From an uncultured virus (IMG/VR IMGVR_UViG_3300027779_000002) (taxonomy: Duplodnaviria > Heunggongvirae > Uroviricota > Caudoviricetes), in IMG/VR virus record IMGVR_UViG_3300027779_000002: DNA of 64,000 bases; one strand, written 5' to 3'. The notes beneath the pieces are model-generated. The model ran no database searches, was not told where the DNA came from, and was given only the letters and a program-made list of their open reading frames with translations. Of the stretch, positions 1 through 63,701 are shown one piece after another. Position numbers and translations under genes: made by a program. Positions within the stretch are counted from its first letter, which is position 1. Each line of letters starts with the position of its first letter.

Positions 1-107
1 TACTGAATCAAAAAAGAAAATCTTTAACGATTGGAGCAATATAGAAAAAAAATTAATAGATGGTCAATGGTGGGTTAAATCCAAAGATGCATTAAAATAA
101 ACAAACT

Positions 108-512
108 ATGAATATATTAAATCAAGATGTGCTTAATGAGAAGCTACAAAAGAAACCAAACAAATCTTACATACAGAAGGTTCAACAATTTAATTGTGCA
201 ACTAAGCCAATGTCGTTTTCTAAATTTAAAGAAACAGGCAGAAAAATAAAAACATCTGTATACCTTAAAAATTATTATAAATCTGACATATCAATAATTG
301 ATATGGGATTGTCAATTGAAAAAGATGCGTCATCTGTACATAGATATGTAGGAGGTTTTTCAATTCAAGAATTAGGCAAACAATTTTATATAAGATATCA
401 TAATAACTTTAAATCTTACAAAACTAAAAATGAAGCTGAAAAAGATTTATATGCTTTTGCATCTGAATTGATTGTCTTTTCATATGCTAACGACCCAACT
501 AATCAATCATAA
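108..512 (+). CDS. hypothetical protein
   Basis: 134-aa ORF, co-oriented and tightly packed with neighbours. Confidence 0.6.
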   Translation: MNILNQDVLNEKLQKKPNKSYIQKVQQFNCATKPMSFSKFKETGRKIKTSVYLKNYYKSDISIIDMGLSIEKDASSVHRYVGGFSIQELGKQFYIRYHNNFKSYKTKNEAEKDLYAFASELIVFSYANDPTNQS

Positions 513-514
513 AT

Positions 515-796
515 ATGAAACAAAAAAATCCTAACGAAGAAAAAATTAAAGAAGTATCAGCAAAAGTATATCATATGTTATTAGAAAAAAATACTGCTTA
601 TGGTAATTCTGCATTAACTCCTGTCAACATATTTGCTAAAGGAAATGCTATAGAAGGAATCTCAGCTAGAATAGATGACAAATTATCTAGAATAAAAAAC
701 AGAGGATTGTCTGATGCTACAGAAGACACCTTATTTGATTTATGTGGATACTTAATTCTGTTAATTATTGCTAGAGAAAATTTGCACAAGAAATAA
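515..796 (+). CDS. DUF1599 / nucleotide-modification-associated domain 1 (Nmad1)-like protein
   Basis: KNTAYGNS...RIDDKLSRI...EDTLFDLCGY matches the KNxDYG / RxxDKxxR / DTxxDLxGY pattern of this helical family. Confidence 0.7.
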   Translation: MKQKNPNEEKIKEVSAKVYHMLLEKNTAYGNSALTPVNIFAKGNAIEGISARIDDKLSRIKNRGLSDATEDTLFDLCGYLILLIIARENLHKK

Positions 797-812
797 ACTA
801 TTATTATATTTG
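781..812 (+). promoter_or_regulatory. Bacteroidetes primary-sigma promoter (-33 TTTG, -7 TATATTTG)
   Basis: TTTG 781-784, 20-nt spacer, TATATTTG 805-812 upstream of the replication operon. Confidence 0.7.
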
Positions 813-824
813 TAGTTCATAATG

Positions 825-895
825 TTGGTTAGTAGAGGGGTAGCATTAAGGAGTCAATTATAGACTTAACTTAAAATACCCCTTACTAATTCCAA
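825..895 (+). other. long imperfect RNA hairpin in 5' leader
   Basis: nested pairings TTGG/CCAA, TTAGTA/TACTAA, AGGGGTA/TACCCCT, TTAAG/CTTAA, AGTC/GACT. Confidence 0.65.
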
Positions 896-909
896 TACAA
901 TCAAATTCA

Positions 910-1218
910 ATGAATTATAAAAAAACTATATTTAATCAATATGCAGACAGGGTCTGTATTGCACACAATATTTCTACAAAACAATTATTCACTAAAGACA
1001 AAACTAAACATATAGCTGATGCAAGGCATATGCTTTATTATCTATGTATAGAAAGACCAATGCGTATAGCATACATAGAAACTTTTATGAAAGAAAGTGG
1101 ATATAATATTACTCATTCATCTATTATATATGGGTTTAAAAAAATACAACAAAACAAATTAAAGGATAACGATTTTAAAGCTATCGTTAAACAAATAAAA
1201 GAATGTGTTACTCTTTAG
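910..1218 (+). CDS. DnaA C-terminal (domain IV)-like HTH protein
   Basis: ADARHMLYYLC...THSSIIYG resembles DnaA domain IV (RQxAMYL...DHxTVxHA). Confidence 0.6.
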   Translation: MNYKKTIFNQYADRVCIAHNISTKQLFTKDKTKHIADARHMLYYLCIERPMRIAYIETFMKESGYNITHSSIIYGFKKIQQNKLKDNDFKAIVKQIKECVTL

Positions 1219-1607
1219 AAGAAATATTTGAACAAGCTAAAAATGACCACTATACAGCTTCATTAGATGGAGATGGAAGTGAAGCTAAAATATTGTATGG
1301 AATCAGGATTGAAAGAATATACCTGTCAGGACAAATTTCTATTCATAATACAACTAAAGGAGGAGACTATTATACTCTAGTTGAAAGCGATGCAATAAAA
1401 ATTTTTAAAGAAAAAGGATGGAGATATGGAGTTTTTTCATTAGCTTTGTCTAATTATCGTTCAAAACTAGATATAATAGAACGTAAAATACGAGAGGAAG
1501 TGAATACTCGTAAGAACGCAAAACATATTCAAAGTTTAAAATCAAATAGACAGAGAATATTAAATCGTTTTTCAAAAGTTTCACATAAGTTAAATTCAAT
1601 TAAATAA
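1203..1607 (+). CDS. hypothetical protein
   Basis: 134-aa ORF with C-terminal coiled-coil character, overlaps upstream stop. Confidence 0.6.
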   Translation: MCYSLEEIFEQAKNDHYTASLDGDGSEAKILYGIRIERIYLSGQISIHNTTKGGDYYTLVESDAIKIFKEKGWRYGVFSLALSNYRSKLDIIERKIREEVNTRKNAKHIQSLKSNRQRILNRFSKVSHKLNSIK

Positions 1608-1612
1608 ATATT

Positions 1613-2149
1613 ATGAAATTAAAAACAATTAAGATTCAAGGTAAAGATTACGTTGAAGTACATGAAAGAATAAAGTATTTCAGAAACACTTACAAAGACT
1701 TTTCATTAGTCACAGAGATAATTGACAAAACAGAAAAAAGCATATTACTAAAAGCAATTATTACTAATGAAGCAGGTAAAATTATTGCAACAGGTTTAGC
1801 TGAAGAAATCAAAGGTGTAGGTTTTATAAATAAAACATCGCACATTGAAAATTGTGAAACCTCAGCATGGGGTAGAGCTTTGGCTAACTTTGGAATCGGA
1901 ATAGATTCAGGAATAGCTTCTGTTCAAGAAGTTAAAAATGCAAAAAACCAACAAGATTATTTAGCAACTGCTCCTAAAGTAAAACCTGTAGTTAATAAAG
2001 AAAAAAGAGATATAGATATTCCTATGTTTTTAAAATGGATAGCTTCATTAAGTGAAGAAGATAAGAACATGAAGTTTGTAGTTAAATATTTAGATGATAA
2101 TTATTATAACTACACACAGGAGCAGGTAAAATCTTTAATAAAAAGCTAA
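1613..2149 (+). CDS. single-strand annealing protein (Rad52/Sak/ERF-like)
   Basis: GKDYVEVHER...ENCETSAWGRAL..GIG motif; adjacent to exonuclease and SSB. Confidence 0.6.
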   Translation: MKLKTIKIQGKDYVEVHERIKYFRNTYKDFSLVTEIIDKTEKSILLKAIITNEAGKIIATGLAEEIKGVGFINKTSHIENCETSAWGRALANFGIGIDSGIASVQEVKNAKNQQDYLATAPKVKPVVNKEKRDIDIPMFLKWIASLSEEDKNMKFVVKYLDDNYYNYTQEQVKSLIKS

Positions 2150-2871
2150 TGGATATACTAGAACAACTTAAAGATGACCATGAATATTACAATGGTATTG
2201 GTAAAAAGTATTTATCTAATTCTAATATTGGTCAGCTATTAAAACACCCTGCTCTATTTCAAAAAAATGAAGGAGATAATAAAAATTTTCTTGCAGGTAG
2301 ATATTTTCATCAATTAATATTAGAACCTCAAAAAGCAAAAGAGTTTCCAATCATTGATGTATCATCTAGAACAACTAAAGCATACAAAGAAGCAAGTATT
2401 GATGGTAATATGTTATTACTACAGCGAGAAGCTAACGAGATAAAATCATGGGTTGAGACAATAGATTCAAATAAACACTTTGCTTCTTTAATATATGACC
2501 CTGCTAATGAGTATGAAGTTCCTGCTGTAGCTGAATTACATGGTAATTTATGGAAAGGCAAAGCTGATATAATTACTAAAGATTATGTTATAGATTTAAA
2601 AACATCTAGTGATAGTTTTAAATTTAAACGTAATAGTTTTTATTATAACTATGATAGCCAAGCATATATATACCAACAGCTGTTTGGTAAACCTGTAAAG
2701 TTTTTAGTGATTGACAAGAATTACAAAGTTTTATCATGGTGGGATGTTAGTGCTGAAGCATTAGTAAACGGAGAAGAGAAAGTAAAAAGAGCAACTGAAA
2801 TTTATAACAAATATTATTCTGATGACGCAACTGAAAAAATTAGTGAGTTTTTTGTGGAAGATTTTATCTAA
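2149..2871 (+). CDS. PD-(D/E)XK exonuclease (RecE/exonuclease VIII, DUF3799-like)
   Basis: LSNS, GRYFH..ILEP, KGKADI...IDLKT, Y..QAYIY motifs. Confidence 0.75.
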   Translation: MDILEQLKDDHEYYNGIGKKYLSNSNIGQLLKHPALFQKNEGDNKNFLAGRYFHQLILEPQKAKEFPIIDVSSRTTKAYKEASIDGNMLLLQREANEIKSWVETIDSNKHFASLIYDPANEYEVPAVAELHGNLWKGKADIITKDYVIDLKTSSDSFKFKRNSFYYNYDSQAYIYQQLFGKPVKFLVIDKNYKVLSWWDVSAEALVNGEEKVKRATEIYNKYYSDDATEKISEFFVEDFI

Positions 2872-3013
2872 ACACATACCTAAAAAAACTTCAAAAAATA
2901 CTATTATGTGGATGGAAGTTCCAATGTCTTGTAATAGTGTAGAGCATAAAAATGATATTATGATATCTACAATTAATCACATGGAACAAAATATAAAAAT
3001 AAAAAAATTATGA
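2822..3013 (+). CDS. small hypothetical protein (start uncertain)
   Basis: fills the gap; stop overlaps next ATG (ATGA). Confidence 0.4.
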   Translation: MTQLKKLVSFLWKILSKHIPKKTSKNTIMWMEVPMSCNSVEHKNDIMISTINHMEQNIKIKKL

Positions 3014-3279
3014 GCAAAGAAAAGTATGTACACAAGGCAGGTTCAGGAAGTTTGTTTAAGAATCAATACAAAGATTCTTCTTCAAAACCTGACATGGTAG
3101 GTTCTGCTACAACATTAGATGGTAAGGTTGTAGAATTAGCAGGATGGACTTCAACAACACAAGCAGGAGAAAAATACGTTAGTATTAAAATGTCTCCTCC
3201 TTATGTAAAAGAAGAAGGAGCATCAGCTAATTTAAAGAAAGAAGAAACATCAAATGTAAATACAGATTTACCTTTTTAA
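3010..3279 (+). CDS. single-stranded DNA-binding protein
   Basis: GSLFKN...PDMVG OB-fold-type N-terminus and C-terminal DLPF tail typical of SSBs. Confidence 0.65.
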   Translation: MSKEKYVHKAGSGSLFKNQYKDSSSKPDMVGSATTLDGKVVELAGWTSTTQAGEKYVSIKMSPPYVKEEGASANLKKEETSNVNTDLPF

Positions 3280-3301
3280 ATTTGTTTATATTCATTGAAA
3301 T

Positions 3302-3324
3302 AGGAGGAGAAATCCTCCTTTTTT
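3302..3324 (+). terminator. intrinsic terminator
   Basis: AGGAGGA-GAAA-TCCTCCT followed by a T tract after the SSB gene. Confidence 0.8.
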
Positions 3325-3335
3325 CAGCTTTTTTC

Positions 3336-3495
3336 TGTGTTGAAATGCTAGAAATTTAGCTTTCTATAGAGCTATAAGGGATATATATAAATATATATTA
3401 TTTTTTTGTTCTTATATGAATATAAATATAACATTTTCAACACTATGACTGATAATCAACCAATTATACAAATTAAATCAACACAAAATCAACAT
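3336..3495. other. origin-like AT-rich element with inverted and direct repeats
   Basis: GTGTTGAAA/TTTCAACAC inverted repeat around an AT-rich core plus three AATCAAC repeats, immediately upstream of the primase-helicase. Confidence 0.45.
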
Positions 3496-3499
3496 AATT

Positions 3500-5920
3500 A
3501 TGACACATAAAGTAACAATCTTCAAAAATATTAAAGAAACCATTGCTCCTTACCATGTAGAAATAGATATTATACTTAACAGAATAAGGGAAGGCTCTGA
3601 TTCTAAGGCACTTGTACAACAAATTAGAAAACTTAAAAAAAAATCCGAAAGGAATGAAATAAAAAAACTTTTACCTGCTATTTGTTTTTCAGGTGTATTC
3701 AACAAACGTACAGACTCATCTATTGTTCAACATAGTGGGTTTATTTGTCTAGATTTTGATGGTTACCCTAACTTTAAGACACTAATGCAGGATAAAGAAA
3801 GTTTATCTAACAACAAATTTGTTTATGCTGTATTCATATCTCCATCAGGAAATGGATTAAAAGTTTTAATAAAAATTCCTGCTGATGCAGAAAACCACAC
3901 TAAATATTTTAATTCATTAGATAAATATTTTAGTTCTGAATACTTTGACAAGACTTGTAAAAATATTTCAAGAGTTTGTTATGAATCTTATGACCCTATA
4001 ATTTTTATAAATAAAAACTCAAAACTTTGGGATAAAATTGAAGAAGAGGAATATTTAGAGCTTAATGTAAATAAAGACCCTCTAACAATTCCTATTACAG
4101 ATGAAAATAAAATAGTAGATATACTATTAAAGTGGTGGACTAAAAAATATCCAATGTCATCAGGACAAAGAAATCAAAACACTTTTGTTCTAGCTTCTGC
4201 TTTGAATGATTTTGGAATTAATAAAAGTTTAGCATCATATGTTCTTGGACAATTTAGTACAAAAGATTTTACAACTAGAGAGATAGAAAGAACAATAGAT
4301 TCTGCGTATTCTAATACAGCTAATTTTGGAACTAAAATTTACATGGATGAAGACAAAGTAAATTCTGTAAAAGCAAAATTAAGAAGAGGTGTATCAAAAA
4401 AAGAAATAAGAAACCAACTAGAAGAATCAAATTTAGATTCTAAAATTATAGATTCAGTATTAAACAAAGCAGAAGAATCTAATAATAATCAAACTTTTTG
4501 GGTTAAAAACGATAAGGGAACTATAAAAATAATACATGTTTTATTTAAAGAATACTTAGAAGATAATGGGTTCTATAAATTTTGTCCTGAAGGTAGTAAA
4601 AATTACGTTTTTGTTCGAGTACAGAACAACCTTATAGACCATACTACTGAAAAAGAAATTAAAGATTTTATATTAAGTGGACTAATTGAGTTAGATGATT
4701 TATCTATATATAATTATTTTGCAGACCAAACAAGATTCTTCAAAGATGAATTTCTTACACTTTTATCTTCTGTAAATATATATTTTATAGCTGATAGTAA
4801 AGATACCTCGTATTTGTATTACAAAAATTGTGCTGTTAAGATAACTAAAAGTTCATTGACTATGATAGACTATATTGATTTAGGTGGTTTTGTTTGGAAA
4901 GACCATGTTATTGATAGAGACTTTAATGAATGTTTAATTGATAATTGTGATTATAAAAAATTTATAGAAAACATATGTGCAAAAAATGAAAGCAGAATAA
5001 AATCTATGGAATCTACAATTGGATTTCTAATGCATGGATATAAAAATTTATCATTTTGTCCTGCTGTAATTCTTAACGATGAAGTTATTAGTGACAATCC
5101 TGAAGGAGGAACAGGTAAAGGATTGTTTATGAATGCGTTATCACATATGAAAAAATTAGTAACTATTGATGGTAAGAGTTTTGCATTTGAACGTTCTTTC
5201 GCATATCAGTTAGTTTCAGCTGATACACAAATTTTGTGTTTTGATGATGTAAAAAAATATTTTGACTTTGAGAGGTTGTTTAGTTTAATTACTGAAGGTC
5301 TTACGCTTGAAAAGAAAAACAAAGATGCAATAAAAATTCCTTTCAGTAAATCTCCTAAAATTGCTATTACAACTAACTATGCTATAAAGGGAGCAGGTAA
5401 TTCATTTGCAAGAAGAAAGTGGGAATTAGAACTACATCAGTATTATACAAAGTCATTTACTCCTCTTGATGAATTCGGAAAATTAATGTTTGGTGATTGG
5501 GATGAAGATATGTGGTGTGAATTTGACAACTATATGATTAAATGTTTACAGCTGTATTTAGAAAACGGATTAATGCAATCTGTATTTGTAAACTTAAAAG
5601 TTAGACAGCTTTCAGCTGAAACTTCGCATGACTTTATTGAATGGTGTGGATTAATTACAGGGCATGAACCTAACGATTTACTAAGAACACATGTATCTAT
5701 TCGTAAACAAGATTTATATTTTAATTTTATAGAAGAGAATCCTGATTATGGACCTAAAGCTAAAATGACCATATCAAGAACTAGATTTTACAAATGGCTG
5801 ACAGCTTATGCGATTTTTAAACAAGGTGTTCCTCCTGAAGAAGGAAGAGATGCGGCAGGAAAATGGATAAGATTCAGAACTAAACATGAACTAGAATACA
5901 ATTCTAAAATTGATATATAA
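3500..5920 (+). CDS. primase-helicase (VirE-N/BT4734-like + PriCT + P-loop helicase)
   Basis: LPAICFSG, ICLDFD, SPSGNGLK, RVCYESYDP; GQRN PriCT motif; Walker A GGTGKG and Walker B CFDD. Confidence 0.85.
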   Translation: MTHKVTIFKNIKETIAPYHVEIDIILNRIREGSDSKALVQQIRKLKKKSERNEIKKLLPAICFSGVFNKRTDSSIVQHSGFICLDFDGYPNFKTLMQDKESLSNNKFVYAVFISPSGNGLKVLIKIPADAENHTKYFNSLDKYFSSEYFDKTCKNISRVCYESYDPIIFINKNSKLWDKIEEEEYLELNVNKDPLTIPITDENKIVDILLKWWTKKYPMSSGQRNQNTFVLASALNDFGINKSLASYVLGQFSTKDFTTREIERTIDSAYSNTANFGTKIYMDEDKVNSVKAKLRRGVSKKEIRNQLEESNLDSKIIDSVLNKAEESNNNQTFWVKNDKGTIKIIHVLFKEYLEDNGFYKFCPEGSKNYVFVRVQNNLIDHTTEKEIKDFILSGLIELDDLSIYNYFADQTRFFKDEFLTLLSSVNIYFIADSKDTSYLYYKNCAVKITKSSLTMIDYIDLGGFVWKDHVIDRDFNECLIDNCDYKKFIENICAKNESRIKSMESTIGFLMHGYKNLSFCPAVILNDEVISDNPEGGTGKGLFMNALSHMKKLVTIDGKSFAFERSFAYQLVSADTQILCFDDVKKYFDFERLFSLITEGLTLEKKNKDAIKIPFSKSPKIAITTNYAIKGAGNSFARRKWELELHQYYTKSFTPLDEFGKLMFGDWDEDMWCEFDNYMIKCLQLYLENGLMQSVFVNLKVRQLSAETSHDFIEWCGLITGHEPNDLLRTHVSIRKQDLYFNFIEENPDYGPKAKMTISRTRFYKWLTAYAIFKQGVPPEEGRDAAGKWIRFRTKHELEYNSKIDI

Positions 5921-39334: not shown

Positions 39335-39587
39335 ATCCTTGATTAGTGTTTATTTTTGTTTTTATTCCTTCAGTTTCTAATGCGTCTCTTTCTATTTCTA
39401 TTCTATTTAATATTTCAAAAGCATCAAATATTGCTAATTTTTTTGTAGCTGCTGCATTTTTTAATCTATCTGCAGATACATCATCTTCAGTTCCTGTAAC
39501 TATTTTTTCTTTTGCAACATTAATTAATTCTTCTACAGCTTTTTCAGCTGCATCAATTATTTTTAATTTAACTTCTTTGTTGCTCAT
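39312..39587 (-). CDS. helical protein upstream of TerL (terminase small subunit candidate)
   Basis: position and size only. Confidence 0.4.
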   Translation of the reverse strand: MSNKEVKLKIIDAAEKAVEELINVAKEKIVTGTEDDVSADRLKNAAATKKLAIFDAFEILNRIEIERDALETEGIKTKINTNQGFAERRSK

Positions 39588-40147
39588 AATTTAACTGTTA
39601 TAAATTTAGACATTATTCTATAAAGAAGAACACCATCTACAGTAAATTCATATTCACTATCAGGTTGAAAAGCAACTTCATCACCAACTTTAACTCCATA
39701 ATTTATAAGTTCTTGATTTGGATATTTAATTTTTCCAACTAAAGGTTCGTATTTTACTACTTTATCTAAATAATAATCTTTAGATTTTACCGGTTCTACA
39801 AAACAATATTTATCATGAGCAAACCACTCATCTCCTGATTTATATAAAAAAAATTGGTCGTTATCTATTAAAAATAAATTATCTTTAAAATAACTTTTAC
39901 CACTTTTTTCATATCCTTTCATATCGTAATATATTTTAAATACATTATGATGTACTAACAAAAGGTCGTTTATTTTTATAGGACCACAATAATTTAAAGG
40001 TAAAGAATTTACTTTAGCGAAACGATTTGAAAACTTATGGTCTTCTTGAGAAGTGCTTATTATAAAATCTACCTCTCCTAATTTTTTAGTATTATCGTAA
40101 CGCTTTCCTTTTAATGGTTCTACTATAAAGCTGTGAGGTGATTGCAT
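39584..40147 (-). CDS. protein with two GroES-like segments
   Basis: FIVEP...IKINDLLLV and CFVEP...GVKVGDEVAF..SEYEFTVDG..LYRI. Confidence 0.5.
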   Translation of the reverse strand: MQSPHSFIVEPLKGKRYDNTKKLGEVDFIISTSQEDHKFSNRFAKVNSLPLNYCGPIKINDLLLVHHNVFKIYYDMKGYEKSGKSYFKDNLFLIDNDQFFLYKSGDEWFAHDKYCFVEPVKSKDYYLDKVVKYEPLVGKIKYPNQELINYGVKVGDEVAFQPDSEYEFTVDGVLLYRIMSKFITVKL

Positions 40148-58184: not shown

Positions 58185-58619
58185 ATGCAAAAAGACTATT
58201 TAAAATATTGGAGGGTTGTTCGTTATTTTGTAAAATCAAAATATAAAATATCTACCGGCGAATTAGACATGCTTTTATTTTTATATTCAGAAAAATATTT
58301 TGGTAAAGATAAATTTAAAGAGTATGATGAATTATTAAGTTGGAATGTAAATCGTTTTGACCAACTGCTCAAACGAGGTTGGATAGAAGTCTTTCGCAAA
58401 AGAGTAGGTAAAAATAAAACGCTTTACAGTTTAAGTTTTAAAGCAAACAGAATGATACATTCTATTTATGAAAAATTAGAAGGCGGAGCTATTCCTGAAT
58501 CTCCTACATCAAATCCTATGTTTAAAGGTAATGTGACTTATACAGACAAGATATATCGTAATCAAATAAAAGAGATGAACAAGGTTATACAACAACAACA
58601 ACGTCTTGCTCCCGAATAA
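58185..58619 (+). CDS. winged-helix (MarR-like) DNA-binding protein
   Basis: STGELDMLLFLY...QLLKRGWIE...LYSLS.KA. Confidence 0.5.
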   Translation: MQKDYLKYWRVVRYFVKSKYKISTGELDMLLFLYSEKYFGKDKFKEYDELLSWNVNRFDQLLKRGWIEVFRKRVGKNKTLYSLSFKANRMIHSIYEKLEGGAIPESPTSNPMFKGNVTYTDKIYRNQIKEMNKVIQQQQRLAPE

Positions 58620-58851
58620 TAGTACAAGCTGTGCCTTCAAGCACCATTTGATATCCTGCACGCTTGTCATAGTATATTATATCATTACTATTAATTGACT
58701 TTACTTCTGTGCCGGGAGTTATAACTTTAGCTTTTTTATATCTAAATTGGTCAGCGTCATGTTCAGACAATAATAATCCTGACTCTGTCTTTAGTTCTTC
58801 TTTAATGTTTTCTACTATAAGGTATTTATTAATTGCTATCATTTGATTCAT
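58585..58851 (-). CDS. groES: co-chaperonin GroES
   Basis: KTESGLLL mobile loop, V..PG, DIIYY, IIREQDVV; adjacent to GroEL. Confidence 0.8.
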   Translation of the reverse strand: MNQMIAINKYLIVENIKEELKTESGLLLSEHDADQFRYKKAKVITPGTEVKSINSNDIIYYDKRAGYQMVLEGTACTIIREQDVVVVV

Positions 58852-60448
58852 ATGTTCTTGCCATTGTTATAATAGCGTTAGTAGATAATATAGTTATTGC
58901 TACAGAAACTGCATTTTGTAAAGCGTTCTTAGTTACTTTCATTGGGTCAATGATTCCCATGTCAATCATATTTCCATGTACTTCGTTCTTAACATCATAG
59001 CCTACTCCATTATGTTTATTAATTGGATATTTTTCTTCTATGGTTGCTCCTGCGTTTTCTAGTATTTGTGAAAGTGGTGCAGATAATGCACCATATAAAA
59101 TTGCGTCAGCAATTTTATGTGAATTTTTTTCTTTTTTTGATATGTATGCAGAACCAATATCATACAATGCTACTCCACCACCCGGTAAGATACCTTCTAA
59201 TAGTGCGGAACGTACAGCACAGACTGCATCATCTACCCTGTCATAGAGTTCTTTTTGTTCAATGTCGGTTTGACCTCCTACATATATAACTCCAATACCA
59301 CCGCTTAATGATGCTATACGAGATAGTATAAAATCTTTGTCATTTTTATTTGAAGCATTTTCATGTGCTTGCCACAATTGTAAAACTCTCTTTCCTACTT
59401 TAGCAACAGACTCAGTTGATTTAATTAATATACTAGACTCTTTACCAATTATACATTTATCAGCATGACCTAAGTCACTAAACGAAATTAATGATAAGTC
59501 ATCACCTGTTTTTTCAGAAAAGTAATTTGCTCCAACCGATACTGCAATATCTTGCATAAGCTCATGTTGTTTGTATCCAAACTGTGGAGGACCTATAACA
59601 CAAACTTGTAAACCATTCTTGACTACGTTTGCTGCTAAAGTATTTACAACATTAATAGACATAGGTGCAATAATTAATAATTTCTTTTGCTCATTAATAA
59701 TTGGCTTTAGTATATTCTCTATTGATAATACGTTTGATATCTCTGCATCACTTACTAAGACATGTACGTTATCTAATATACACTCGTCTTTCTTTTGATT
59801 ATTAATAAATAAAGGCGATGTCCACCCTCTCTCAATTTTAATTCCGTTTGTGGTCTCGCTATAAGTGGTACTTGAATCCGATTTCTCTACAGTAACTATT
59901 CCGTTTTTACCAACCTCCTTATATGTATCAGCAATAACTTTACCAATTACTTTGTCATTGTTCGCAGATATAACAGCTACATCAAGTAATCTTTTATTAG
60001 TAATTTTTTTTGAAACCTTTTTTAAATTGTCTATTACTACCTCAGTTTCTTTTAATACCTCTTTTAATACCTCCGCTCTGTTTGTGGTATCATCCATTAA
60101 GGCATCGCCTTGCTTAACTAATGCTTCAGTAAGAACAATAGCAGTAGTTGTGCCATCACCCGCAGAGGTTGCAGTATTATCCGCAGCCTGCTTCATCATA
60201 CGAACCGCAAGGTTCTCAACAGGGTCTAATAAATCTACAGCTTTAGCTACGGTTACTCCGTCTTTAGTTACGGTTAACCCGCCTGTTACATATTGTGATT
60301 CGATGAGGACTGTATTCCCTCTAGGACCTAATGTGCTTTTAACTGCGTTTGCGATTTGTGTAATTCCGGAAATAAGCTTTGCTCTTCCGTTTTCACCAAA
60401 GGATAATTCTTTGGGATTAAAGCCTGATGGCATGTTGATTTGATTCAT
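58829..60448 (-). CDS. groEL: chaperonin GroEL
   Basis: AVKSTLGPRG, TKDGVTVAK, AGDGTTTA, GILPGGG, GIIDP.KV. Confidence 0.95.
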   Translation of the reverse strand: MNQINMPSGFNPKELSFGENGRAKLISGITQIANAVKSTLGPRGNTVLIESQYVTGGLTVTKDGVTVAKAVDLLDPVENLAVRMMKQAADNTATSAGDGTTTAIVLTEALVKQGDALMDDTTNRAEVLKEVLKETEVVIDNLKKVSKKITNKRLLDVAVISANNDKVIGKVIADTYKEVGKNGIVTVEKSDSSTTYSETTNGIKIERGWTSPLFINNQKKDECILDNVHVLVSDAEISNVLSIENILKPIINEQKKLLIIAPMSINVVNTLAANVVKNGLQVCVIGPPQFGYKQHELMQDIAVSVGANYFSEKTGDDLSLISFSDLGHADKCIIGKESSILIKSTESVAKVGKRVLQLWQAHENASNKNDKDFILSRIASLSGGIGVIYVGGQTDIEQKELYDRVDDAVCAVRSALLEGILPGGGVALYDIGSAYISKKEKNSHKIADAILYGALSAPLSQILENAGATIEEKYPINKHNGVGYDVKNEVHGNMIDMGIIDPMKVTKNALQNAVSVAITILSTNAIITMARTYESNDSN

Positions 60449-61050: not shown

Positions 61051-61271
61051 CTCCCCCCCCTCACACGCAATCACCCGACAAAAGAAAACTCAAAAAAAAA
61101 GTTGACCCCCCCTGAAGATTTAAATGTTTACGTTCAGATTTTTTAGGAAAACGCCTGACCCCTGTCACCCTCTACCCCTCCCCCCCCTGTACACCTACTG
61201 CTCTACGTTTGTCGTACCACATACCCACACACACACACGCATACACGCCTACCTTCCCCCTATTATATCCC
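61051..61271. other. C-rich non-coding junction (candidate genome end/packaging region)
   Basis: multiple C4-C9 runs and a (CA)n tract at the strand switch in an otherwise AT-rich genome. Confidence 0.45.
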
Positions 61272-61330
61272 TATATGAATCTTATAATATCATAACAAGC
61301 TAAGAGATATAAGAGTGCATCCCCTCAACG

Positions 61331-61760: not shown

Positions 61761-62693
61761 ATGAAAAAATTCAAAAAAATCAACGTCTTTGAAGCTGTCA
61801 ACAAACAGGTTACAGATGGGTTAAAAAAATCAGGGATGTCTTGGTTCAAGGCTTGGACAGACTCAAACGGAAACATTCAAGACCCTATTAACAGATGTAC
61901 TAAGAGAGGTTACAACGGAGTAAACATCTTTATCTTAAACGCTACAGCATCTATAGAAGGTTATCCATCTAACGAGTGGGTTAGCTTTGCTGAAGCTAAG
62001 AAATTAGGCAGTAACGTTAAGAAGGGAGAAAAGTCAACTATGATAGTATATTGGAACATCGCTTACAGAGTAGAAGACAAGTGGTTTCCTAATCTAACTG
62101 CACTAAACAAGGCAGGTTATACGGAAGAAGATGCTAAAAAATTATTTACATTAAAACAATTCAGAGTATTTAATATTGCACAATGTGATAATTTAGAAGC
62201 GTGTAGAGAAATACCAACAGAGAGTGAAGATAACCTTGACATTCAACCAATAGAGTCTGCTGAAGCTATTGTAAACGGATACAAGAACGCTCCTAAAATT
62301 GTAGAGAGACCACAAGATTCTGCTTACTATACACCTTCAAGAGATACCATCACAATGCCGACTAAAGAGCAGTTTGTTGAGCGTACCTCGATAGATGATT
62401 TCTATAAGGTTTTATTTCATGAGATGATTCATTCAACAGGACATTCATCTAGATTAGATAGAAAACTTGTAGGTGTTACAGCTGACAAAGTTTCTTATTC
62501 AAAAGAAGAATTGGTTGCTGAGATTGGTGCAATGTATTTAACTTCGATTGCCCACCTGAATCCTAAAGACCATGAGAGACAGAGTCAAGCGTATATCAAC
62601 GGATGGATTAAGTTCATTAAATCTAGTCATGAAAAAGCATTGATATCAGCAATGACCAAAGCAAGACAGGGTGTTGATTTAATCCTTAAATAG
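61761..62693 (+). CDS. ardC: ArdC-like antirestriction/ssDNA-binding protein (DUF1738 + zincin-like domain)
   Basis: YNGVN..L, W.SF..A...G..V.KGEK, F.VFN..Q; AYY.P..D.I.MP, HEMIHSTGH..RLDR, YSKEELVAE. Confidence 0.85.
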   Translation: MKKFKKINVFEAVNKQVTDGLKKSGMSWFKAWTDSNGNIQDPINRCTKRGYNGVNIFILNATASIEGYPSNEWVSFAEAKKLGSNVKKGEKSTMIVYWNIAYRVEDKWFPNLTALNKAGYTEEDAKKLFTLKQFRVFNIAQCDNLEACREIPTESEDNLDIQPIESAEAIVNGYKNAPKIVERPQDSAYYTPSRDTITMPTKEQFVERTSIDDFYKVLFHEMIHSTGHSSRLDRKLVGVTADKVSYSKEELVAEIGAMYLTSIAHLNPKDHERQSQAYINGWIKFIKSSHEKALISAMTKARQGVDLILK

Positions 62694-62698
62694 CAGAC

Positions 62699-62725
62699 TA
62701 TCCTGAGCATGATACCAAACTGCTC
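62699..62725 (+). ncRNA. H-type pseudoknot, copy 1
   Basis: P1 TATC(62699-702)/GATA(62711-14); P2 GAGCA(62705-09)/TGCTC(62721-25). Confidence 0.7.
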
Positions 62726-62774
62726 CTGTCCACAAGTGAGTGCTTGTGCTGATGAGTTCAAAAGAACGAAACAG
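62726..62774 (+). ncRNA. type III hammerhead ribozyme, copy 1
   Basis: CTGTC^ - stem I CACAAG/CTTGTG - CTGATGA - stem II GTTC/GAAC - GAAA - CAG; canonical core with GUC site, predicted cut after 62730. Confidence 0.9.
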
Positions 62775-62799
62775 AAATATTAAATTAATAAATAACATT

Positions 62800-63189
62800 A
62801 TGTACACAAGAGAACAATTAAGTAAAATGACAACTGAAGAATTTTTAACAGCTATGGGTTTTGAGATTCAAATCGGCAATATTTGGAATCGGTCAGCAGA
62901 CAAATACGCATGGACAGAGACTTCAAAAGATGGTTATGATTTGTATGTACTATCAGACAATAATTCTAATCCTAGCATCTGTGATGACATTCATTATGAT
63001 GAATACGGATTCATTGATAGCTTCAAAGAATACATTCAACACTCCTGTTATTGTGAAGAAACAATCGCTATTGAAGAACACCTTTTAGAAGATGTAGATG
63101 CATTATTCGATGAAGATGAAATGTTTGATATTGCAGTTAAATTAGACAAAGCAGAGGAAGAAGAATTTGAAGAGGAAGTTACAGAGTGA
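62800..63189 (+). CDS. highly acidic 129-aa early protein (DNA-mimic candidate)
   Basis: ATG after TAAATAACATT leader; about 36 D/E versus 8 K/R by hand count. Confidence 0.65.
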   Translation: MYTREQLSKMTTEEFLTAMGFEIQIGNIWNRSADKYAWTETSKDGYDLYVLSDNNSNPSICDDIHYDEYGFIDSFKEYIQHSCYCEETIAIEEHLLEDVDALFDEDEMFDIAVKLDKAEEEEFEEEVTE

Positions 63190-63223
63190 TTTGGTAGTTT
63201 CGTTTATTTTTCGTACATTGCAA

Positions 63224-63250
63224 TATCCTGAGTAAGATACTAAACTACTC
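63224..63250 (+). ncRNA. H-type pseudoknot, copy 2
   Basis: TATC/GATA and GAGTA/TACTC (compensatory change relative to copy 1). Confidence 0.7.
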
Positions 63251-63299
63251 CTGTTTCGAGATGAGTGTCTCGACTGATGATTCCAAAAGGATGAAACGG
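63251..63299 (+). ncRNA. type III hammerhead ribozyme, copy 2
   Basis: CTGTT^ - stem I TCGAGA/TCTCGA - CTGATGA - T-TCC-AAAA-GGA-T - GAAA - CGG; predicted cut after 63255. Confidence 0.8.
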
Positions 63300-63320
63300 A
63301 AACTTAAATTAAATAACATT

Positions 63321-63551
63321 ATGAAAAAATTACACATTTATTTTATGAACGGATTTACATTCTTAATTGCTTTAGGAGTGTTGGTTATGGTAGCCAATGT
63401 ATTAGTACACATACTAAAAACAGACTTGATTTTTCTAGGAGACTTCCTAGCGTGGATGATTGGAGTAGGTGTCTTTGTTGGTTCTAGCTTTTTAGTATTA
63501 GGATTATTAATAGAAAACCACAAACAAGATTTAAAAGAACTTAAAAACTAA
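63321..63551 (+). CDS. two-TM early membrane protein
   Basis: ATG after the same TAAATAACATT leader; two hydrophobic helices. Confidence 0.6.
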   Translation: MKKLHIYFMNGFTFLIALGVLVMVANVLVHILKTDLIFLGDFLAWMIGVGVFVGSSFLVLGLLIENHKQDLKELKN

Positions 63552-63554
63552 ACA

Positions 63555-63701
63555 ATGGCTAAAACACAATTAGATGATTTAAACGACAAGATAAAAAACT
63601 TAAACTCTTTAAGGATACTTGCAGAGGGAGATGAAAAACTTCTTGCTCAAATACAAAACCTCATCGACAAAACAATATCAACCAAACTTTGGATAACTTA
63701 A
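63555..63701 (+). CDS. 48-aa hypothetical protein
   Basis: MAKTQLDDLNDKIKNL...; fills gap between neighbours. Confidence 0.5.
   Translation: MAKTQLDDLNDKIKNLNSLRILAEGDEKLLAQIQNLIDKTISTKLWIT

Follow-up and report, generated by a model that had tools for sequence, protein, structure and literature searches.

The early RNA of phage T7 is processed by RNase III into gene-sized mRNAs with structured 3' ends. For hammerhead ribozymes of prophages, which occur in clusters that flank genes including the anti-restriction gene ardA and cleave both in vitro and in E. coli, processing of the transcript into gene-length mRNAs was proposed (PMC3088659; statements on published work here and below refer to excerpts of the papers cited). 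The same work reports a U10.1-U11.1 variant and places a "type3 HH at end of genome" among the active variants of its Fig. S6, the text of which is garbled but leaves the U-U pair visible. Circularization was raised as well, but spliced or circular products could not be detected (PMC3088659).

The purpose of bacterial and phage self-cleaving ribozymes was described as still undefined (PMC6765202). RiboJ-type cleavage raises stability in E. coli (PMC7536230), and ribozyme-dependent translation in eukaryotic RNA viruses offers a looser parallel (PMC13725137). A different kind of element, the coremin xrRNA of plant, fungal and marine RNA viruses (xrRNA-C and xrRNA-WCC), adopts a fold that blocks 5'-3' enzymes and ribosomes, not 3'-5' enzymes; coremin motifs were also found to stall scanning ribosomes and to stimulate frameshifting in vitro (PMC10520033, PMC10321173).

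Genomic context and architecture of the two cassettes

The stretch of DNA analyzed here (the window, 64,000 nt) stems from an uncultured, aquatic virus, and its terminase, portal, GroEL/GroES and primase/helicase genes mark it as part of a phage genome. The terminase matches 87 phage records, headed by MW202828 (74%) and followed by Flavobacterium elemo phages (45%), with Cellulophaga, Tenacibaculum and Maribacter phages also among the matches. Given these relatives and the scarcity of Shine-Dalgarno (SD)-like words, which occur in just 2 of 45 long window ORFs, the host probably belongs to the Flavobacteriia. Phage-encoded GroEL and two GroES-like genes, located at 58585-60448 and 39584-40147, are shared with the elemo phages and MW202828.

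Both cassettes sit among the first plus-strand genes past a divergent non-coding region, right after an ArdC-like gene, and the region is called early because of this gene order. The non-coding stretch between the divergent gene blocks (61070-61290) is of low complexity, with C runs and a CA repeat; it is possibly an origin or packaging region, and spurious short RNA contigs gather at 61217-61248. RNA contigs from four of five listed runs, all with small shares, do not cover 62336-63666, from which nothing follows for or against cleavage. The features of the locus are:

61761..62693, plus strand: ArdC-like anti-restriction gene (ardC), 310 aa, the cistron upstream of cassette 1 (Pfam and PHROG matches)
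62699..62725, plus strand: pseudoknot 1, 27-nt H-type; S1 62699-62702/62711-62714, S2 62705-62709/62721-62725 (sequence; covariation in homologues)
62726..62774, plus strand: predicted type III hammerhead 1; stem III 62726-62729/62771-62774, stem I 62731-62736/62743-62748, stem II 62756-62759/62764-62767, core 62749-62755, GAAA 62768-62771, pair 10.1-11.1 G-C (descriptor match, Rfam Hammerhead_3 alignment, custom model)
62775..62799, plus strand: leader 1, A/U-rich, SD-less (profile of 118 cassette leaders and window genes)
62800..63189, plus strand: acidic 129-aa ORF, function not assigned by any family match (homologues in contigs L352 and L353)
63224..63250, plus strand: pseudoknot 2 (sequence)
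63251..63299, plus strand: predicted type III hammerhead 2; stem I 63256-63261/63268-63273, core 63274-63280, GAAA 63293-63296 (descriptor, Hammerhead_3 E=0.0036, custom model)
63300..63320, plus strand: leader 2, A/U-rich
63321..63551, plus strand: hydrophobic 76-aa ORF that would open the third RNA unit (homologues in L352 and L353)

An earlier note on this DNA had described two cassettes, each a pseudoknot followed by a type III hammerhead, and both their positions and their architecture are borne out by the sequence and by a type III descriptor. When applied to both strands of the window, this generic descriptor returned exactly these two cores, compared with a chance expectation of 0.02 per window (one match in 2 of 100 order-3 Markov simulations). 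A custom model, whose training set included both window copies, scored them at 74.5 and 71.4 bits, with 14.7 bits for the next best match, and revealed no further copies within the 64-kb window.

Pseudoknot 1 begins 5 nt downstream of the TAG stop codon of ardC and has loops of 2 nt (L1), 1 nt (L2) and 6 nt (L3, with an AAAC end). Pseudoknot 2 starts 34 nt past the upstream stop at 63189, and in its S2 a C-G pair of copy 1 is replaced by U-A, a compensatory change. The cleavage triplets are GUC in hammerhead 1, with the cut predicted after 62730, and GUU in hammerhead 2, with the cut predicted after 63255 and a stem II that begins with U10.1-U11.1. Stem I is fully paired in both copies (6 bp) in spite of its different sequence, as had been claimed. 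The further claim that the core and both loops are invariant stands for loops I and II, which are identical, but not for the core, in which the copies differ at pair 10.1-11.1 (G-C versus U-U) and at N17 (C versus U). Stem III of copy 2 contains a U-G wobble, and with its combination of GUU, U-U and wobble this copy may be slow to cleave. The two copies are only ~76% identical over 104 nt and stems covary in the family, which suggests selection on RNA structure. In copy 1, bases 62692-62696, at or just past the ardC stop, can pair with 62720-62724 of the 3' strand of pseudoknot S2; this pairing, which resembles the MFE fold, may constitute an alternative structure that depends on translation.

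The ardC product matches the Pfam families ArdcN (E=5.8e-23) and MPTase-PolyVal (E=4.5e-28) as well as the anti-restriction protein phrog_7245 (E=1.2e-60). For the protein of ORF 62800, a family search gave no family match; homologues of ORF 63321 stand directly 3' of a hammerhead in both L352 and L353. A longer version of ORF 62800 in the ORF-tool listing starts at a GTG (62740) that falls within the ribozyme and is an unlikely start codon.

Assignment and conservation of the hammerheads

The core (CUGANGA plus GAAA), the U16.1-A15.1 pair and an NUH site are present in both copies and invariant in 103 of 103 aligned copies. Stems I and II are closed by loops and stem III is open, all three being paired with covariation, which is the type III layout; the one common exception to pairing across the family is pair 10.1-11.1. 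Tertiary contacts between loops I and II follow a rule of a 5' U in loop I and a 3' A in loop II. At the level of sequence, this signature is carried by both window copies, and it recurs in 39 of 39 copies that had escaped both search patterns, so that the assignment to the hammerhead consensus holds for the core, the NUH site, the three stems and the loop signature. In the comparison with Rfam proposed in the earlier note, no match in the window reached the gathering score; Hammerhead_3 (RF00008), with which the core and three stems align, was the best Rfam match for both copies, at 28.4 and 18.1 bits versus a gathering score of 48.5. Standard annotation therefore misses both copies, and the sub-threshold score restricts the Rfam label, not the type III class assignment.

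A family pattern in which loops and core were fixed and no pairing was imposed identified 59 viral loci, corresponding to 52 distinct matches. Stems I and III are paired in 51-52 of the 52 at each position; within stem II, the three inner pairs form in all 52 and pair 10.1-11.1 in 41; the triplet is GUC or GUA in all 52, though this was not demanded by the pattern. A 103-row alignment has 96.9% paired cells (69.8% when shuffled) and a covariation of 0.796 (0.241 when shuffled). As this larger set was partly selected for pairing, the 52 pattern-only matches constitute the fair test, and they confirm that pairing is conserved in homologous cassettes. N17 is linked to pair 10.1-11.1 (alignment A1 and the cassette set): C17 goes with G-C in 48 of 48 copies, and U-U, A-A or G-U are confined to copies with A17 or U17 (47 of 67; Fisher p about 1e-16, with descent ignored), an association which may reflect structural coupling in the core or block inheritance.

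The search for more copies, none of which were found elsewhere in the window, yielded about 130 related hammerhead cassettes in viral contigs (130 of an initial 132, after removal of L072:5063, a descriptor match scoring <12, and of the false match L049:5584). Three near-complete contigs carry 2, 3 and 3 copies, every one of them in the variable region that opens the plus-strand gene run, and the 99%-complete relative G002 has two. One hammerhead of the same kind, without the pseudoknot, is present in the cultured phage elemoF (Flavobacterium sp. BAL314). The closest terminase relative MW202828 has no cassette and the cassette is, consequently, dispensable in this group; no match was obtained in G001 (55% complete) and in one Chryseobacterium genome. 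A blastn search with copy 1 found nothing beyond weak similarity to the leader. For copy 2, matches extend to 72 records of Pseudomonas phages. Five contigs of 107-186 kb (L069, L070, L081, L085, L094) contain pseudoknot-hammerhead cassettes in which an extra U follows A9, stem II has 5 bp and the tails are rich in U, and the fusion is thus not confined to ~60-kb podophages.

PaP3 harbors a member of the subtype at its genome end (66 bits to custom model R1), in agreement with the primers and the Fig. S6 panel for the "type3 HH at end of genome" (PMC3088659). It shares with the present hammerheads a 6-bp stem I, a 6-nt UG(A/U)GUG loop, a short stem II with a 4-nt loop, the U10.1-U11.1 variant and a 4-bp stem III. 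The likeness to the PaP3 and prophage hammerheads extends to the position in the early region, to clusters flanking genes that include an anti-restriction gene, and to the processing proposed for them. The host, here probably a member of the Flavobacteriia, is different, as is the fixed order of stop codon, cap, cut, SD-less leader and ATG; a cap module is not mentioned in the sections of PMC3088659 considered. In the pseudoknot-stabilized hammerheads of that work, the knot connects stem I or its loop to stem II or the tail of the latter, whereas the cassette pseudoknot lies wholly 5' of stem III and also occurs without a hammerhead. Judged from its sequence, the ribozyme belongs to an ordinary class, to a subtype already reported active and to a known kind of context; what is new is the modular build and the way it is joined to an uncatalogued pseudoknot of coremin-like form.

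A second, different type III hammerhead-like element is found in the early region of Bruynoghevirus genomes (L355:2396-2449, L060:2424-2477, L356:44072-44123). Nucleotides 1-3500 of LUZ24 lack the cassette hammerhead subtype, and their sole hammerhead-like element is this second one, at 2396-2449. Ends with a cyclic phosphate are probably not captured by long-read data such as those for LUZ24. None of the first five listed 3' ends coincides with the cut of the 2396-2449 element, which is uninformative (PMC10914365).

Three separable modules

A structure was found just 5' of the cut in 128 of 130 cassettes, namely a pseudoknot in 27, a share inflated by the targeted search, and a hairpin of -8 kcal/mol or stronger in 101; two cassettes have neither. 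On the hairpin side, the median MFE is -18.7, compared with -8.7 for shuffled sequences. Ninety-two of the 101 hairpins end 4-6 nt from the cut, with the 4-nt minimum set by the folding window, and the pseudoknot-to-cut gap of 5-6 nt is partly imposed by the search pattern. An ORF ends upstream of the cap in 27 of 27 pseudoknot cassettes and 95 of 101 hairpin cassettes, and several cassettes sit 26-108 nt from the upstream stop.

A pattern that specified only the 3' strand of the knot and the hammerhead gave 29 distinct matches, of which 28 contain the full knot (shuffled mean 0.026) and 29 the full core; pair counts were not taken from alignment A2, in which a gap is misplaced in S2. Among the 59 loci of the pairing-free pattern, only L009, L014 and L033 show the pseudoknot, and knot-type and hairpin-type cassettes occur side by side in L353 and L354. 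Since a hairpin replaces the pseudoknot in 101 of 130 cassettes and the knot exists alone, it is a separate module. The view of pseudoknot, hammerhead and leader as one unit has to be given up: cap, hammerhead and leader are three separable modules.

The leaders of 118 cassettes have A at frequencies of 0.67 at -3, 0.66 at -6, 0.84 at -12 and 0.67 at -13, and an SD-like word in 10 cases; A at -3 and the lack of an SD agree with PMC6847099. The same kind of leader precedes ardC (61761) and 63714, both without a hammerhead, and the leader was hence rejected as a cassette-specific element; it is a generic start region of the Bacteroidota type. In the fold predicted after the cut, the stem I hairpin stands at the 5' end and the leader is open.

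Comparison of the pseudoknot with coremin motifs

The phage pseudoknot shares with coremin xrRNAs (xrRNA-C and xrRNA-WCC) a 4-bp first hairpin, an A-rich spacer (CUAAACUAC in copy 2, UUAAACUAC in coremin), a loop-to-spacer pseudoknot and a location near 3' UTRs, and the loop of copy 2 equals the heptaloop of the Xrn1-resistant RnHV2 with one inserted U (PMC10520033, PMC10321173). The 4-bp hairpin 1 and the conserved 8-10-nt spacer that define xrRNA-C are present, the phage spacer being CUAAACUAC or CCAAACUGC. The loop consensus YGAD or YGNNAD, however, requires a G at position 2, where the phage loops CUGAGCAU and CUGAGUAA have a U. The definition of xrRNA-WCC does not apply either, as it calls for G as the first loop base and a 3-bp Watson-Crick S2, and the phage knot has C and an S2 of 5-6 bp. 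An 8-nt loop and a Watson-Crick S2 of 5-6 bp versus 3 bp also set the knot apart from coremin, as do its occurrence in DNA phages and bacteria and its position 5' of the cut, where a 5'-3' block protects almost nothing. Coremin xrRNA-C further has a second hairpin right behind its spacer; at this place in the phage RNAs, hammerhead stems abut the knot only before cleavage, and the sequence is A/U-rich in many of the stand-alone copies listed. The knot thus resembles coremin in its build and is not assigned to the coremin family.

The pseudoknot outside the cassettes

A knot-only pattern matched at least 133 viral loci and at least 121 loci in prokaryotic genomes; Enterococcus, Clostridium and Paenibacillus are among the genomes with matches listed. 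A hammerhead was flagged after the knot in 3 of 135 listed viral matches, of which L098 alone looks real by eye, and in 0 of 123 listed genomic matches. The third S1 pair, which was left free by the pattern, is Watson-Crick in 128 of 128 listed viral knots (34.6 when shuffled) and in 119 of 123 listed genomic knots, and both free S2 positions covary in the listed viral and genomic knots. At E values up to 10, Rfam contained no family for the knot at 20 of 133 stand-alone loci. Literature searches by full-text words retrieved only unrelated papers, and searches by title or abstract start none on the knot; the supplements of PMC5737381 and PMC10690425 could hold it.

In 118 of 139 listed stand-alone knots an ORF ends within 90 nt upstream, 38 of these on the opposite strand, all these counts taking no account of relatedness. 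Twenty-eight of the 139 are followed at 4-14 nt by a tRNA, and 27 of them also lie behind a stop codon; 21 of the 28 are tRNA-Asp cases, probably from related phages. No tRNA ends upstream of a knot (0 of 139), and none lies downstream in 111 of 139. The knot is therefore found 5' of two different cut sites, that of the hammerhead and, presumably, that of RNase P. Several bacterial copies are followed by sequence resembling intrinsic terminators.

Other roles for the knot were considered. Stop-codon readthrough was rejected, as the median length of open frame is 8 codons. Likewise, there is no plus-strand terminator-like site to suggest an intrinsic terminator, and promoter-like counts are at chance level.

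At L116:285-445, the DUF2800 RNA of Rfam (RF02960, 159.9 bits) begins 1-2 nt past a stand-alone pseudoknot, and similar sequence follows the knot in L245 and L324; this RNA may be a third partner element. In some bacterial genomes (L234, L333 and similar loci, namely L242, L274, L282, L289, L304 and L326), the loop of the pseudoknot contains a TGA that shares its frame with a short ORF whose product ends in C-x-x-G-C-x-x-x-S. A terminator-like hairpin often lies downstream of knots of this type, and the loop TGA would be either a stop codon or a recoded UGA.

Proposed function

The PaP3 homologue argues strongly for self-cleavage of the cassette hammerheads, and both ribozymes of the window very probably cut. 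Self-cleaving processing of the early transcript, as suggested in the earlier note, is the most likely function, though not a novel one, as it was already proposed beside ardA (PMC3088659). The structures, their conservation, their placement and the order of the parts, all of them observed, suggest that the cassettes separate cistrons by means of RNA alone. Each would combine three modules, namely a compact cap that follows the stop codon within a few bases (a coremin-like H-type pseudoknot here, a strong hairpin in most relatives), a fast type III hammerhead whose cut falls 5 nt past this cap, and an unstructured, SD-less leader. The early transcript would be cut co-transcriptionally into an ardC-containing RNA, a 525-nt RNA (62731-63255) that carries ORF 62800 alone, and an RNA from 63256 on. 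The upstream piece would end in the pseudoknot, 5 nt and a 2',3'-cyclic phosphate, and this tail would give 3'-5' exonucleases too little RNA on which to load. The downstream piece would begin with a 5'-OH and the stem I hairpin, akin to a natural RiboJ insulator, and such an end slows RNase E-type decay. The pseudoknot would serve as a 3'-end guard of the upstream mRNA and have no part in catalysis. Unlike the RNase III processing of T7 RNA, this cleavage would be protein-free and leave 5'-OH and cyclic phosphate ends instead of 5'-P and 3'-OH. In RiboJ insulators, the cut similarly provides the downstream gene with a uniform structured 5' end; the cassette differs in being natural and in its extra structure 5' of the cut, the added 23-nt hairpin of RiboJ being described as a folding aid (PMC7536230).

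The whole reading of a cassette as stop codon, 3'-end guard, self-cut and 5'-hairpin mRNA is assigned a probability of roughly 0.6. If the ribozymes cleave, the guard role of the pseudoknot is probable, since the cap, whether knot or hairpin, would be left on the upstream product with 4-6 nt behind it, an arrangement also seen in front of tRNAs, and protection of that end is the simplest role for it. Points against this role are that most listed knots are without a tRNA (111 of 139) and without a hammerhead, that the terminator-like sequences behind several bacterial copies would already guard the end, and that the coremin fold is known to block 5'-3' enzymes and ribosomes, not 3'-5' enzymes (PMC10520033, PMC10321173). 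A broader version of the guard reading is put forward tentatively and is rather doubtful: the knot may be the prokaryotic counterpart of coremin, widely distributed in phages and among bacterial phyla but put to the opposite use, as a cap that works without protein against 3'-5' exonucleases. Placed before any endonucleolytic cut (hammerhead or RNase P), it would complete an RNA-only punctuation, composed of stop codon, cap, self-cut and ribosome landing site, that makes separately stabilized mRNAs from a polycistronic early transcript.

The main rival, unlikely as it is and compatible with a guard role, likewise has the hammerheads cut but lets the knot or hairpin act on the ribosome: sitting at the channel through which mRNA enters the terminating ribosome, it would block post-termination scanning and re-initiation and keep ribosomes off the folding ribozyme. 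In 115 of 117 listed viral copies, 5 nt or more separate the stop codon from the knot, and in 70 of 117 the distance is 5-9 nt, with the same peak among the matches listed from bacterial genomes and exactly 5 nt in copy 1. This hard lower limit fits action on a terminating ribosome equally well, and coremin motifs do stall scanning ribosomes and stimulate frameshifting in vitro (PMC10520033, PMC10321173). The same spacing, however, would be needed by any structure to escape melting by the ribosome; copy 2 is 34 nt away from its stop and several cassettes 26-108 nt, and where the knot precedes a tRNA, there is no further cistron to insulate.

It is very improbable that the knot is a true xrRNA which blocks 5'-3' decay by RNase J and protects the downstream RNA, with a functionally independent hammerhead added later. 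The motif does occur in genomes of Enterococcus, Clostridium and Paenibacillus, groups that have RNase J. Such a role would also suit the first hairpin of 4 bp and the spacer, which hardly differs from the coremin spacer, but the loop deviates from the YG..AD consensus (PMC10520033, PMC10321173), just 5 nt remain 3' of the knot after cleavage, and a plain hairpin substitutes for it in 101 of 130 cassettes. In the order of a Chryseobacterium genome, the likely host order, not one of 61 genomes contained RNase J above the cut-off (8 of 14 controls passed), which disfavors a 5'-3' block in the likely host.

There is a similarly slight chance that the cassettes are chiefly module boundaries for the shuffling of accessory genes, either as recombination sites or as the ends of an excised RNA that is ligated or mobilized, with a secondary effect on mRNA. 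They bracket variable early genes, homologues of ORFs 62800 and 63321 stand in swapped order in L353, and circularization was raised as a possibility in PMC3088659; on the other hand, that work could not detect spliced or circular products, the two copies are only ~76% identical with covarying stems, and no reverse transcriptase was found among 44 ORFs scanned in the window. Finally, cleavage as a down-regulating timer that destabilizes early messages such as ardC, for which the decay triggered by glmS ribozyme cleavage and the suggested differing stabilities of processed pieces (PMC6765202) could be cited, is most improbable, as the strong structure just 5' of the cut in 128 of 130 cassettes is unexpected if decay is the aim and RiboJ-type cleavage increases stability in E. 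coli (PMC7536230).

Implications

What self-cleaving ribozymes do for bacteria and phages has been named as an open question (PMC6765202). With about 130 natural variants of fixed anatomy and two interchangeable upstream modules, the processing hypothesis becomes testable part by part, and elemoF, growing on Flavobacterium sp. BAL314, is a cultured phage with one such hammerhead. Among the positional clues found, the fusion is also the best one to what this uncatalogued pseudoknot, very common in phages, does. If its role as a 3'-end guard is true, the knot would provide synthetic biology with a 27-nt mRNA-stabilizing part and would form a structural link between phage RNAs and the xrRNAs of eukaryotic viruses.
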